DNA of 64,000 bases from Promethearchaeota archaeon (GTDB lineage Archaea > Asgardarchaeota > Lokiarchaeia > Sigyniarchaeales > SOKP01), in assembly GCA_048941285.1 (NCBI GenBank), contig JBHLNS010000007.1:41686-105685 (forward strand), read 5' to 3'. The position numbers were made by a program, and so were the translations under genes. A model generated the notes under the pieces. That model did no database searches. It saw nothing but the letters and a program-made list of their open reading frames with translations, and was not told where the DNA came from. The stretch's first letter is position 1, and each line of letters begins with the position of its first letter. Positions 24,749 through 27,612 of the stretch are shown piece by piece.

Positions 24749-27118
24749 ATGAAATGTTTATTCTGTGAAAATCAAAAAATCGATTTCACATGCGAAAAAT
24801 GTAAATCTAGCTTTTGCATTAATCATATTGCTACAACTGAAATACATGAATGTAGAAAACATAATTTAATCTATTCTAAAGTAAAAGCAATTGAAAGAAA
24901 TTTTAAATGCACGGTTGTAGAAAGCAGTGAATGCCCAGTTTGTAAAAATCTCTTAAGATTAGAAAGATTATCTTCAGGGCAGTATTATTTAGAATGTATT
25001 AATCCGAATTGTCCTGAAGCATGGAATTCATATTTGAAAACACCAGGGTTATTTTTCCCTTCAAAGGAAAAACTTGCAAGAGAAGCTTTAAGATATAATC
25101 TCATAAAAGTTAATAGATTAATCTTATGTAGTAAGAAATTACGCCATATAATTGGAAAAGAAGTTTGTCCTAAATGTTTTCTAGACTTGTTACAAATAGC
25201 TCCGATTACTAATTTTTCAACAATAATGAATTCTTTTAATATATCTGCAGAACAAATGATTAAATTTATAAACAAATACATTGAGGAAGAACGAATATAT
25301 GGAATTATTGATCAAAAAAATCAGATGTTTTATTACATATCTCCCGAAATGCGGGAAAATATATTAGCTAAATTTCAAAATGAAGGGATAATTAAAGTAA
25401 GCGATTTAGGAACTATGCTTGATATGAGTTCGGAGATCGCTTTAAAAGTAATTTACAAGTTAATAAATCAGTTTCAAATTAAAGGTTCTTTCTCATTAGA
25501 TAAAGATATATATTATACTCAAAAGTATATATTAGACAGTTTGATAAAAGAGATTAATAAAAAAGGGAGGGTAAATCTTAAAGAACTTGCTGATATTTTT
25601 GATATCCCAAAAGAACTTGTTAAATCATTTTGTGTGAATTTAATGAGAACTAAAGCTGTTAATGGTTTTTTCGCTGATCGTGGAAATGAAATCATTACAG
25701 CTGATCAAATTTACACAGATATAAGAAATTATTCCAAAGAAACAGGATTGTTTGAACTTTCAAAGCTTGCTATAAAATTAAAAATTGCAGTAGAATTAGC
25801 AAGAAAAAGCCTTCATGAGTTAATAAAAACCGGTGATATTAAAGGCCTCTTTACTCAAAGAAGAGAATTTATGACTAATAAACACATGGAGAAAAAGATA
25901 AGAGAAATCGCTAGAGCATATAGAACAATGCCTTTACGAGAACTTTCAAATAGATTAGGAGTCACTGAATCAAGTATTGAAGAAAATTTAGCTCAAATTA
26001 TAGCTCGTGGAGATATAGATGGATATATCGATATGTCTAAGAAAGTTTTTGTTGCGTACAGTGTCCCTATGGAAACAACATCAAAAGCTAAATCAACAGC
26101 CAAAGAACCTCTCGATGAAGGTAAAATTGAAGTTGTTCGTGATTATGATTTCGTAGGTGGTCAATTACATTTCAAGGTAGCTATCCGCAATCAAAGTAAT
26201 ATGGCAATAAATACAGTGAAAGTCCTTTTAGATGTACCTTCAAGTTATAATGCAAAAAGTCCTCTCATTACTGTGCCTGTTATAGAAGCAAAAAACTCTA
26301 GAGGTGTTGATTTCTATTTGGAGCCAAAAGAATGCGGAATTTCGAATATTACTGGTGATGTTATCTACAAAACCGCTACTGGAGAAAAAAAAACGGTTCA
26401 CATACGTAAAAAAGAAGTTCAAATAAAATGTCCCTTAGTAGTTTCATGTTTAGCAACAATCGAAGATATTCAAATAGCCATCGCAGATCTTCCCAATGAT
26501 GCTCGAGCATTTTTAATTGCAGATCTGGATCCTCGTTTAGCTTTTAGAGCAGCAGTAAGAACCATTAAGCGTTTTGAAGTAAGCACAGTGACTTCTCATG
26601 AAGGAACTGATTCTAAAGGTAAATATGAAGCGGAGAGTTGGCATTGTTCAGAAGCGAAGATAGGTGGAGGAAGAATTGTTACACGAATATATGTATCTGA
26701 AGCGAATCAGTCATTAGAAGTTAGAGTTTGGTGTAATCATCCTGGTCAATTAACAGGGTTTTTAGCTAAAGTGATTGAGCTATTATTTGAGGAGATCAAT
26801 TTAATAAGAAAGATTAAAAGTGAAGAACGTGAAAAAACAATCGATGTTATGGCAATAACTCAAAATATTGCAGAGATGTCGGATTATTGCATGCTAAGAT
26901 GGAAAGCGCAAAACATTAGAACTAAATTACATGATACTTTTGTTAGAGTAAGAAAAATTATGGGAGATAAAGAAGCTATTCTAGGGAGAATGGAATTTTG
27001 GTTAACAAACTTGAATAAATATGGAAAAGATGATAAGATTTCCGATGAGGACGCAGATAAACTTGTGGTAGAACTTGAAAACTTTAGGAATGTTATCGCT
27101 CGTTCTATCAAATTGTAG
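24749..27118 (+). CDS. multidomain protein: Zn fingers + PCI/winged-helix repeats (DDRGK1/UFL1-like) + adaptin-ear-like sandwich/platform
   Basis: CxxC clusters aa 1-145; five ~59-aa wH repeats ending in G.I.G.[IF]; beta-rich sandwich then alpha/beta platform. Confidence 0.7.
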   Translation: MKCLFCENQKIDFTCEKCKSSFCINHIATTEIHECRKHNLIYSKVKAIERNFKCTVVESSECPVCKNLLRLERLSSGQYYLECINPNCPEAWNSYLKTPGLFFPSKEKLAREALRYNLIKVNRLILCSKKLRHIIGKEVCPKCFLDLLQIAPITNFSTIMNSFNISAEQMIKFINKYIEEERIYGIIDQKNQMFYYISPEMRENILAKFQNEGIIKVSDLGTMLDMSSEIALKVIYKLINQFQIKGSFSLDKDIYYTQKYILDSLIKEINKKGRVNLKELADIFDIPKELVKSFCVNLMRTKAVNGFFADRGNEIITADQIYTDIRNYSKETGLFELSKLAIKLKIAVELARKSLHELIKTGDIKGLFTQRREFMTNKHMEKKIREIARAYRTMPLRELSNRLGVTESSIEENLAQIIARGDIDGYIDMSKKVFVAYSVPMETTSKAKSTAKEPLDEGKIEVVRDYDFVGGQLHFKVAIRNQSNMAINTVKVLLDVPSSYNAKSPLITVPVIEAKNSRGVDFYLEPKECGISNITGDVIYKTATGEKKTVHIRKKEVQIKCPLVVSCLATIEDIQIAIADLPNDARAFLIADLDPRLAFRAAVRTIKRFEVSTVTSHEGTDSKGKYEAESWHCSEAKIGGGRIVTRIYVSEANQSLEVRVWCNHPGQLTGFLAKVIELLFEEINLIRKIKSEEREKTIDVMAITQNIAEMSDYCMLRWKAQNIRTKLHDTFVRVRKIMGDKEAILGRMEFWLTNLNKYGKDDKISDEDADKLVVELENFRNVIARSIKL

Positions 27119-27183: not shown

Positions 27184-27612
27184 TTGGTGTTAATTATTCC
27201 TATTATCAGTGTTTCTTTGAATGAGAATCTGAAAAAATTCATTAATAAGCTTGTTTCAAAAAACCAGTACGAGAATAAATCTAAATTAATTAGAGATGCT
27301 CTATTACGTTTAATGTCTACAGAAGATATATCTTCTTCCCTTGATTCTTTTAGTGATTTTACTCCAGTTGCAAAAAAGGTGATTGGTAACATGATTATTG
27401 TTGCTCCTAATGATTCAAATGTTCAAAAAAAATTAAATAGAATAGAAAGTGAATATAACAAACAGATTGTTAGTAAAAATCAGAATTTTGTAAATCAAAA
27501 TTTCATAATATTTATGATTTATGAAGGAAATCTTCAAGAATTTCAAAAACTTGTTGTAGAGATAAATAGTATCGAAGAAATAAAAAATTTTAGATACCTA
27601 ATTATTAACTAA
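27184..27612 (+). CDS. NikR/CopG-like ribbon-helix-helix regulator
   Basis: PIISVSL.E.L...I..LV....Y.NKS.LIRDAL; ACT-like C-terminal domain; true start uncertain (27184, 27187 or ATT 27196). Confidence 0.75.
   Translation: MVLIIPIISVSLNENLKKFINKLVSKNQYENKSKLIRDALLRLMSTEDISSSLDSFSDFTPVAKKVIGNMIIVAPNDSNVQKKLNRIESEYNKQIVSKNQNFVNQNFIIFMIYEGNLQEFQKLVVEINSIEEIKNFRYLIIN

Follow-up and report, generated by a model that had tools for sequence, protein, structure and literature searches.

The gene analyzed here encodes a single-copy, soluble 789 amino acid scaffold protein of Lokiarchaeia-type Asgard archaea. As seen in the sequence and the structure models, its domains run in the order zinc modules, five UFL1/DDRGK1-type winged helices, disordered linker, adaptin/COPI-type appendage (ear) and Vps28 C-terminal-type bundle. 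The presence of the ear and the Vps28-type bundle on one scaffold suggests that the protein is likely to be a multivalent adaptor. Components that belong to three separate systems in eukaryotes (coat adaptors, ESCRT-I and the scaffold of the UFM1 ligase) are here joined in a single archaeal chain. All positions are those of the window, that is, the whole 64,000-nucleotide stretch of DNA that was analyzed. The segment flagged in an initial annotation made from the sequence alone (26120-27118) corresponds to the C-terminal 332 residues of the open reading frame at 24749-27118 (+), with position 26120 falling at residue 458 and position 27118 being the final base of the stop codon. The strings quoted in that annotation (LHFKVAIRNQS, INTVKV, SRGVDFYLEP, ECG, NITGDVIY and LEVRVWCNHPGQLTGFLAKV) are all present in the translation of this frame. 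The features are listed in Table 1.

Table 1. Features of the scaffold gene, with positions in the window and the basis of each assignment.
Feature	Residues	Positions	Strand	Basis
Whole gene, multidomain scaffold protein	789 aa	24749..27118 (stop codon included)	+	ORF list and translation
N-terminal Cys-rich zinc modules	1-140	24749..25168	+	CxxC pairs in translation
Five tandem winged-helix domains, UFL1/DDRGK1/PCI-like	141-436	25169..26056	+	Pfam, AF2, Foldseek
Linker, predicted disordered	437-459	26057..26125	+	Low pLDDT
Appendage beta-sandwich subdomain	460-566	26126..26446	+	Model strands, ear alignments
Alpha/beta platform subdomain, TBP-like	567-664	26447..26740	+	VIA-align to AP-4 beta platform
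Helical tail: long connecting helix, then four-helix bundle	665-789	26741..27115	+	Model helices
Vps28 C-terminal-type four-helix bundle	~695-787	26831-27109	+	VIA-align, Pfam, hhalign

An AlphaFold2 (AF2) model of residues 455-789, built from a 50-row alignment, had a mean pLDDT of 94.1 and a pTM of 0.67. In model numbering, residues 6-112 contain strands, residues 117-208 form an alpha/beta unit and residues 211-334 contain helices, which agrees with the order of beta-rich, alpha/beta and helical segments read earlier from the sequence. Using Foldseek to search the PDB with this model, we found the best matches to be beta2-adaptin, alpha-adaptin, COPI appendages and BBS9, with E values between 5.6e-10 and 2e-7. 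The top match was the beta2-appendage 1e42_A (E value 5.6e-10, 235 columns), and the other leading ones included 2iv9, the COPI structures 9qpq_H, 5a1u_E, 1pzd and 1r4x, the alpha-appendage structures 1w80 and 2vj0, and BBS9 6vbu_9. VIA-align ranked the platform of the AP-4 beta appendage (2mj7) first, with a Z score of 13.4 and an rmsd of 2.7 Å over 119 residues (model residues 106-235), and also returned beta2 3h1z (Z 13.2, 198 residues), alpha 1w80 (Z 12.9) and gamma-COP (Z 11.1). Both sandwich and platform were covered in the matches to 3h1z, 1w80, 1r4x and 5a1u_E. The strands at 6-112, which aligned inside the ear matches, form an Ig-like beta-sandwich, and a TBP-like platform follows directly after it, as seen from 2mj7 and the two-domain matches. 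The adaptin/COPI-type sandwich and platform proposed in the initial annotation are thus borne out by the model and by both structure searches. A generic Ig or CARDB domain lacking a platform was considered and rejected, since a platform is evident in the model and in the Foldseek and VIA-align matches. The sandwich alone matches generic Ig-like and MG domains equally well (VIA-align Z 12-13).

The ears of AP-2 alpha and beta2, AP-4 beta, and COPI beta and gamma share with the Asgard protein a flexible linker, a beta-sandwich and then a TBP-like platform. In our models, the linker had pLDDT values below 50 at residues 441-460 of the N-terminal model and at residues 1-3 of the C-terminal model. 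Superpositions of both domains on adaptin ears gave an rmsd of 6.5-10 Å, indicating that the relative orientation of sandwich and platform differs from that in the adaptin ears. Sequence identity to the adaptin and COPI ears is about 10%, and no Pfam adaptin ear family matched either the whole protein or the fragment at E ≤ 1; among 50 relatives, weak matches were found to Alpha_adaptinC2 in two (E value 2e-3) and to GAE_BBS1 in two (E value 5e-3). The most conserved motif of the family, with the consensus VWxxDxxQxTGFLA, lies at the end of the platform. Adaptin ears are hinged to an alpha-solenoid trunk, whereas the Asgard protein has no such trunk and carries zinc modules and five winged helices upstream. 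Unlike the AP and COPI ears, it continues from the platform directly into a helical bundle.

The helices of the tail lie at model residues 211-261, 266-284, 289-301 and 312-334. VIA-align superposed the yeast Vps28 C-terminal domain 2j9u_A on the tail with a Z score of 13.0 and an rmsd of 2.1 Å over 93 residues of the 94-residue chain; generic four-helix bundles follow at a distance of just 1 Z unit (CheA P1, for example, has Z 12.0). The Pfam family VPS28 (PF03997) matched the fragment with an E value of 1.9e-5 at profile positions 88-182 of 188, with scores of 25.0 bits for the fragment, 23.8 for the whole protein and 24.9 in the genome search, against a gathering cut-off of 24.5. This match was found in 10 of the 50 family members. 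Across 10 same-family genomes (G000 included), nine orthologue frames of about 790 amino acids, or fragments of such frames, matched VPS28 positions 87-186 with scores of 22.8-28.5 bits, seven of them above the cut-off. An hhalign comparison of the family with a 28-sequence alignment of Asgard Vps28 gave a probability of 94.2% (E value 1.1e-7) over 88 columns in the C-terminal part of Vps28. The family profile did not match the Vps28 of the same genome taken as a single sequence, and profile-profile comparison was needed. On these sequence profiles and the model, the tail is predicted to be a four-helix bundle of the Vps28 C-terminal type, a part of ESCRT-I. Thus, the helices expected after the platform are present, but their reading as a BBSome-type hairpin gives way to the Vps28-type bundle on the strength of the 2j9u_A superposition and the VPS28 and hhalign matches.

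The Vps28 C-terminal domain (2j9u, 2j9w, 2g3k) is a four-helix bundle, about 95 residues long, and resembles the tail by both Pfam and profile-profile matches. Only the C-terminal positions of the VPS28 profile matched; in contrast to full-length Vps28, the scaffold has no N-terminal core (steadiness box), the part from which the ESCRT-I headpiece is built. BBS2, BBS7 and BBS9, all of which are among the structure matches, have the same order of sandwich, platform and helices, and BBS9 6vbu_9 was matched by Foldseek (E value 2e-7) and by VIA-align (Z 12.4 over 236 residues), but with an rmsd of about 20 Å. The BBS proteins possess a beta-propeller and an alpha-helical hairpin, whereas the Asgard protein has no propeller and ends in a four-helix bundle. 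A complex prediction of the tail (residues 665-789) with the Vps22 of the same genome returned a score of 0.00 in two runs with the controls not folded, a result that gives no answer either way.

In the N-terminal half, the block of zinc modules was modeled by AF2 with pLDDT values of 86-93 and contains short strands; compared with PDB sequences, it had weak, non-significant matches (E values of 1.5-4.3) to the small zinc-finger chains 1wys and 1x4v. The region downstream was modeled as five H-E-H-H-E-E repeats. Pfam identified it as PCI (E value 1.3e-22), E3_UFM1_ligase (E value 4e-17, 63.2 bits against a cut-off of 23.2) and DDRGK (E value 1e-12, 48.5 bits against a cut-off of 27.8), and it is a tandem PCI-like winged-helix array scoring above the UFL1 and DDRGK1 family cut-offs. 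The top Foldseek match of residues 1-460 was the UFL1-DDRGK1 chimera 8b9x_A (E value 1.6e-13, TM (target) 0.72, rmsd 3.6 Å, 245 columns), and structures of 60S-bound UFL1 (8qfc_B and 8ohd_A) matched with E values between 9e-12 and 4e-11. Other proteins with tandem winged helices trailed all of these by a wide margin (SelB 1lva, for example, with an E value of 9e-6). The initial annotation had placed a Ubl-ligase-like scaffold on the same protein, and a UFL1/DDRGK1-like array is indeed present. Human UFL1-DDRGK1 (8b9x, 8qfc, 8ohd) shares the tandem PCI-like winged-helix rod by sequence and structure; the Asgard protein differs in being a single chain, fused to zinc modules, ear and Vps28-type bundle. 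The scaffold is probably not a UFM1 ligase. No match to Ufm1 (PF03671) or UFC1 (PF08694) was found in the 94.1%-complete genome, with the UFC1 control positive in no control genome, so that the absence of UFC1 is not proven. Ufm1 and UFC1 are eukaryote-only according to a passage of PMC10183829.

The initial annotation regarded the linkage of a ligase-like scaffold to a coat-type appendage as the best candidate for an undescribed system. This does not hold, because the domain combination already appears in two preprints. The text of Fig. 5a of Liu et al. 2020 (10.1101/2020.10.19.343400) names Vps28/Vps23 with adaptin/COPI C-terminal domains and E3 UFM1-protein ligase 1, and that of Fig. 6B of Makarova et al. 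2024 (10.1101/2024.02.06.579148) names Vps28-C with the adaptin appendage (plus HTH/PCI, TPR, IG and longin). Proteins combining Vps28-C, adaptin appendage and UFL1/PCI are described in these passages as putative ESCRT-linked adaptors, and the architecture of ear, Vps28-C and UFL1-type rod is, on their wording, already known. Compared with the proteins named in these figure texts, the present one has the same domain set, recovered independently here, and nothing essential differs; it presumably has exactly the architecture drawn in the two figures. Since the architecture is published, little is added as discovery. Because parts of three eukaryotic systems occur in one chain, the protein would nevertheless provide a good experimental handle on the wiring of the eukaryote-like membrane machinery of Asgard archaea.

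The way in which such an adaptor might work is drawn from the eukaryotic roles of these domains and from what Makarova et al. 2024 proposed. The appendage would be the hub to which partner or cargo proteins bind through short peptide motifs, the Vps28-type bundle would dock the scaffold onto ESCRT-II/III machinery encoded elsewhere in the genome, and the zinc and winged-helix rod may act as a rigid arm for holding one more partner.

The second half of the protein is also related to Sel_Asgard, a putative selenocysteine system protein. The NCBIfam profile NF045535 (Sel_Asgard) matched residues 592-781 at profile positions 2-188 of 195 (E value 9e-9), with scores of 35.5 bits and, in a second search, 38.9 bits, against a curated cut-off of 132. 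The true Sel_Asgard member in the same genome, whose gene directly follows SepSecS, scored 228.7 bits. An hhalign comparison of the scaffold family with 21 Sel_Asgard sequences gave 97.2% (E value 3.5e-11) over 195 columns, and the C-terminal fragment alone found Sel_Asgard genes in three genomes (E values of 4e-7 to 9e-6). When the tail was compared with the Sel_Asgard of its own genome by pairwise BLASTP, nothing was found (E value 2.6); the relationship is visible only with profiles and with more distant Sel_Asgard members. By sequence profiles, then, the scaffold is a homologue of NF045535 over platform and bundle and not a member of it. Encoded beside SepSecS, Sel_Asgard stands alone and has about 195-230 amino acids, as opposed to the 789 amino acids of the scaffold. 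The platform and Vps28-C-type bundle may form a portable two-domain cassette, common to the scaffold, to dozens of other Asgard architectures and to Sel_Asgard. As the cassette also occurs in a SepSecS-adjacent protein, it need not be ESCRT-specific. The homology would give the unexplained Sel_Asgard family a fold. That this cassette is homologous to the Asgard-only Sel_Asgard is possibly a new observation.

In eukaryotes, the UFL1/DDRGK1-type rod rides on the ribosome. The protein might, then, be a UFM1-independent forerunner of UFL1-DDRGK1, with a rod that docks on a large particle such as the ribosome and with further factors recruited by ear and bundle, which would make it a translation or quality-control adaptor and not one of endosomal-type sorting. 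The scores above cut-off for E3_UFM1_ligase and DDRGK, the lead of 8b9x, 8qfc_B and 8ohd_A far ahead of SelB 1lva among the structural matches of residues 1-460, and a passage of Picchianti et al. count in favor of this reading. We nonetheless consider it unlikely, given the empty searches for Ufm1 and UFC1 (the latter a weak search) and the finding that the ear and Vps28-type half is the better conserved one: in the relatives P0121-P0123, identity is 50-59% in the C-terminal half versus 31-37% in the N-terminal half. It is at least as doubtful that the unsplit rod marks a UFM1-independent ancestor of the UFMylation scaffold, one that links ESCRT-type membrane remodelling to ribosomes or to nascent or membrane cargo, instead of a plain sorting adaptor.

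Bacterial SelB binds SECIS RNA via tandem winged helices, and SelB is among the fold matches of the N-terminal half. Together with the cassette homology and the position of the genome's own Sel_Asgard gene directly after SepSecS, this might place the scaffold functionally with Sel_Asgard, in a selenocysteine- or tRNA-linked process. Such a role seems very improbable, as the NF045535 score is far under the family cut-off, Sel_Asgard is found in many Asgard families without a scaffold orthologue, and the fold of the N-terminal half matches UFL1 far better than SelB. Even less likely is that the protein is homologous to a large adaptin or COPI subunit and builds a vesicle coat as a genuine adaptor subunit. 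The appendages of beta2- and alpha-adaptin and of beta- and gamma-COP do give the best matches to the ear fold, but the architecture disfavors this reading: zinc modules and winged helices stand in place of an alpha-solenoid trunk, and adaptin Pfam matches are limited to the weak Alpha_adaptinC2 hits in 2 of 50 relatives.

As for the genes with which an ESCRT-linked adaptor would be expected to work, none lies among the neighbors of the scaffold gene, which encode a GT87 glycosyltransferase, a DsbD-like membrane protein, a NikR-like regulator and a parvulin, in a synteny kept among close relatives. A canonical Vps28 of 206 amino acids is encoded by a separate gene on contig C52 of the same genome, and Vps22, Vps25 and a Vps4-like AAA fragment (assigned by eye on the basis of its ORF) on contig C36. 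An operon with ESCRT genes was therefore rejected, the scaffold gene itself being on C66. The protein was found in 35 of 40 same-family and in all three sister-family genomes, and 100 stretches from species-representative genomes, 80 of which were kept, were confirmed to contain orthologues 68-96% identical over the flagged segment. Residues 455-789 matched 391 clusters (50% identity) at E ≤ 1e-3, of which 102 still matched at E ≤ 1e-10, which indicates that the flagged stretch is not a chance one. Among 5423 candidates, 332 were homologues at E ≤ 1e-3; the 120 of these that were listed had 79-100% identity over residues 455-789, and the complete proteins among them were 754-820 amino acids long. 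One homologue, P0087, comes from a marine-sediment metagenome record (LCGC14_1751350).

The region at 26120-27118 lies wholly within the open reading frame of the scaffold gene (see Table), starting at aa 458 and ending on the last base of the stop codon. All peptide strings quoted in the initial annotation are present in the translation, and the earlier observation at this position is confirmed. The window, with a G+C content of ~29%, corresponds to C66:41686-105685 of a host genome of 3.55 Mb (101 contigs, 94.1% complete), in which a sequence search found the scaffold gene in single copy.

Table. Features of the scaffold protein, its gene neighbors and the Sel_Asgard genes
Feature	Location	Strand	Details
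Scaffold ORF	24749..27118	+	789 aa; ORF list and translation
Small zinc modules	aa 1-140	+	predicted model
Five regular winged-helix repeats	aa 141-436	+	predicted model
Disordered linker	aa 441-460	+	predicted model
Beta-sandwich	aa 460-566 (model residues 6-112)	+	predicted model
Alpha/beta unit	~aa 567-664 (model residues 117-208)	+	predicted model
50-residue helix, then three more helices	aa 665-788 (model residues 211-334)	+	predicted model
GT87 glycosyltransferase, DsbD-like membrane protein	upstream of scaffold gene
NikR-like RHH protein, then parvulin	downstream of scaffold gene
NikR-like gene	27184-27612	+	RHH_1 E 3.5e-4, NikR_C E 3.9e-5
Sel_Asgard, own genome	C52:86085-86663	-	NF045535
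Sel_Asgard, related locus L086	1486-2163	-

Residues 455-789 were aligned with 49 relatives of 20-88% identity (alignment A1), and the structure predicted from this alignment had a mean pLDDT of 94.1 and a pTM of 0.67, with pLDDT >=90 in 290 of the 335 residues. Using Foldseek to search the PDB with this model, we found the beta2-adaptin appendage 1e42_A first (E value 5.6e-10, 235 columns), followed by 2iv9, the COPI chains 9qpq_H and 5a1u_E, alpha-adaptin 1w80 and 2vj0, BBS9 6vbu_9 (E value 2e-7) and gamma-COP 1pzd and 1r4x; BBS2 and BBS7 came lower in the list. VIA-align, run over 48,161 representative chains, ranked the AP-4 beta platform 2mj7 first (Z 13.4, rmsd 2.7 Å over 119 residues, model residues 106-235), with beta2 3h1z at Z 13.2 (198 residues), alpha 1w80 at 12.9, BBS9 at 12.4 and gamma-COP 1r4x at 11.1. 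These matches bear out the sandwich and TBP-like platform that had been proposed. The sandwich by itself is fitted equally well by generic Ig-like, MG and transglutaminase domains (VIA-align Z 12-13); what marks an ear is the platform together with its place after the sandwich. Since the platform is present, and since the next platform-type match outside the adaptors was the Bet v 1-like 1vjh at Z 10.1, the model is not that of a generic Ig domain lacking a platform, the alternative named in the initial annotation. Two-domain superpositions of the solved ears on the scaffold model gave an rmsd of 6.5-10 Å, and the relative setting of the subdomains is therefore unlike that in the solved ears.

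The helices after the platform were originally compared with the BBSome order of GAE, platform and hairpin. Helices do follow the platform, and their best VIA-align match was the C-terminal domain of yeast Vps28, 2j9u_A, a chain of 94 residues of which 93 align with model residues 241-333 (Z 13.0, rmsd 2.1 Å). This is just one Z unit over generic four-helix bundles (CheA P1, 12.0), so that structure alone is not decisive here and the sequence evidence decides. The Pfam VPS28 profile matched the whole protein at 23.8 bits, marginally under the cut-off of 24.5 (E value 4.3e-5), with aa 690-781 aligned to positions 88-182 of its 188, and aa 455-789 on their own at 25.0 bits. It also matched 10 of the 50 family members (best E value 8.5e-7), and among 10 genomes of the same family (G000 being one of them) nine orthologous frames of ~790 aa, or fragments of such frames, matched positions 87-186, seven of them over the cut-off. 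Comparison by hhalign of A1 with 28 canonical Asgard Vps28 proteins gave a 94.2% probability (E value 1.1e-7, 88 columns) on the Vps28 C-terminal domain, and a PDB search with the A1 profile picked up the Vps28-CTD structures 2j9w (E value 0.004) and 2g3k, 2j9v and 2j9u (E value 0.16), although that profile did not detect the genome's own Vps28 as a single sequence. Unlike Vps28, the scaffold tail lacks the N-terminal core. We read the tail as a Vps28-C-type bundle, not a BBSome-type hairpin; the fold interpretation is thus supported, with the tail re-assigned.

Pfam hits to the whole protein were PCI (E value 1.3e-22, three stretches), E3_UFM1_ligase (4e-17, aa 228-436) and DDRGK (1e-12), and the top PDB sequence match was the UFL1-DDRGK1 chimera 8b9x (2.2e-5, aa 152-287). 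A model of aa 1-460 (18-row alignment, pLDDT 88.1) had the human chimera 8b9x_A as its best Foldseek match (E value 1.6e-13, TM(target) 0.72, rmsd 3.6 Å, 245 columns), together with UFL1 on the 60S subunit (8qfc_B, 8ohd_A, 9gy4_E); SelB (1lva, E value 9e-6), RPC62 and PCI proteins lay far behind. "Ubl-ligase-like scaffold" was therefore an apt label for fold and family. The first zinc module (window 24749-24870, aa 1-40) has a CxxC...CxxC...CxxH...HxC pattern; its matches among PDB sequences were weak and non-significant (1wys and 1x4v, both small zinc-finger chains; E value 1.5-4.3).

NCBIfam gave one sub-threshold match, aa 592-781 to NF045535, "Sel_Asgard" (E value 9e-9, 35.5 bits against a cut-off of 132). 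Comparison by hhalign of A1 with 21 Sel_Asgard proteins from genomes of the phylum gave 97.2% (E value 3.5e-11, 195 columns), and aa 455-789 alone match the Sel_Asgard genes of three genomes. The genome's own NF045535 member (228.7 bits) directly follows SepSecS (PF05889, E value 1.9e-112). On this evidence the platform-and-bundle cassette (window 26450-27115) is homologous to this Asgard-only family, which suggests that Sel_Asgard is a stand-alone ear-platform/four-helix cassette, its fold taken from homology, rather than a dedicated selenocysteine factor. A 2024 ISME J paper (PMC11227280) refers to a hypothetical protein, restricted to Asgard archaea, in the vicinity of Sec genes, without a fold assignment in the accessible part of its text.

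The scaffold is a known Asgard architecture. The initial annotation had taken the fusion for a candidate undescribed system, and this is not supported, as the available text of Liu et al. 2020 (10.1101/2020.10.19.343400) and Makarova et al. 2024 (10.1101/2024.02.06.579148) already describes proteins with this set of domains. The former predicts ubiquitin-dependent membrane remodelling for Asgard multidomain proteins with these domains; the latter, in the portion available, reports TPR, IG-like and HTH/PCI as extra domains of Vps28-C plus adaptin appendage proteins and proposes direct ESCRT-II binding and an ESCRT-0-analogue role. The accessible text of Eme et al. 2023 (PMC10307638) notes that Asgard archaea have Pfam domains of the adaptin ear, and that of Hatano et al. 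2022 (PMC9192718) an interaction of Lokiarchaeal ESCRT-I with Vps22 by Y2H. While the domain order and folds are established here, the function is one that we infer: the protein may be a multivalent adaptor, whose ear would serve as a hub for peptide motifs, whose Vps28-C bundle would dock on ESCRT-II/III and whose zinc/winged-helix rod would hold another partner.

The matches to UFL1 on the 60S subunit might instead point to a UFM1-independent forerunner of UFL1 at the ribosome. Ufm1 had zero matches in the 94.1% complete genome, as did UFC1 in a weak search whose control was silent everywhere; according to PMC10183829 both are confined to eukaryotes. We consider this reading unlikely. A link to the Sel_Asgard protein, to which the shared cassette might point, is very improbable. 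That the protein is a true coat subunit, as the adaptin and COPI matches could be taken to imply, we regard as barely credible. The multivalent adaptor remains our preferred reading.

A census of the module used HMMs cut from A1 and is partly circular, as ~45 representatives are themselves A1 rows. Among the best 150 representatives, 40 had sandwich, platform and Vps28-C-like bundle, 84 sandwich and platform, and 18 the sandwich only, the remainder being six bundle-only fragments, one platform plus bundle and one platform only. Pfam (E value <=1e-4) was run on 36 of the 40 triple-module proteins, excluding the orthologue-like P0121-P0123 and the truncated P0164. HTH_HVO_0163_N-type winged helices were present in 11, PCI in three (one with E3_UFM1_ligase/DDRGK too), Big_13/FG-GAP in three, double zinc ribbons in two and TPR repeats in one, while 17 had no recognisable partner domain at that threshold. 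These figures match the published picture of variable partners. The genome also encodes an ear-like paralogue (C23:595-1605, minus strand, 337-aa frame) that matches the sandwich and platform profile (E value 6.9e-7, positions 4-197) and carries a C-terminal CxxC...CxxC zinc ribbon in place of the bundle.

A word-indexed search confirmed 332 homologues (E value <=1e-3) among 5423 candidates; the best 120 were 79-100% identical over aa 455-789, the complete ones measured 754-820 aa, and most of the named homologues among those listed are annotated "PCI domain-containing protein". An exhaustive search of 50%-identity representatives gave 391 clusters at E<=1e-3, of which 102 reached E<=1e-10 and 10 reached E<=1e-30. 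Species-representative genomes yielded 178 candidate stretches, 100 of them confirmed, and the 80 kept loci, titled mostly Promethearchaeota/Promethearchaeia, were 68-96% identical. Vps22 of the same genome set shows 81-91% identity among the 119 relatives listed, and the high scaffold identities are therefore largely due to closely related genomes. Among 201 genomes sampled from the phylum, orthologues (E value <=1e-113) were present in 35 of the 40 belonging to the window's family and in all three from a sister family of the same order; beyond these there were weak matches only, to sandwich and platform (E value >=2e-33), and 61 genomes overall had matches at E<=1e-5. The nearest representatives (P0121-P0123) are 50-59% identical in the C-terminal half and 31-37% in the N-terminal half; ear and bundle are the more constrained part.

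Across the 80 related loci, the 790-aa scaffold frame (>=50% coverage) and the NikR-like gene were each found in 75, the DsbD-like gene in 69, parvulin in 62 and GT87 in 61. This neighborhood reflects the synteny that close relatives share in general and does not point to a function. The NikR-like gene begins 65 bases past the end of the scaffold gene and is likewise on the plus strand. An operon with ESCRT genes is ruled out, as those of this genome lie on other contigs: C36 carries Vps22 (PF04157, 57.3 bits), a Vps25-like protein (PF05871, E value 5.6e-13) and a Vps4-like AAA fragment assigned by eye from its ORF, and canonical Vps28 is at C52:79016-79576. Vps28 and the Sel_Asgard/SepSecS pair lie ~6.5 kb apart on C52; six further genomes from the family (G049, G008, G030, G065, G071 and G057) also have Vps28 and Sel_Asgard on a single contig, separated by ~7-17 kb, and the two are far apart in a complete genome of another family (G038). 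Several genome records whose titles name Hermodarchaeota, Hodarchaeota, Thorarchaeota or Odinarchaeota (L006, L007, L010, L012, L018, L026 and others) contain orthologues 74-96% identical to this Promethearchaeota-type protein over 335 aa, and their Vps22 is similarly close; the submitters' phylum labels in that assembly series look inconsistent.
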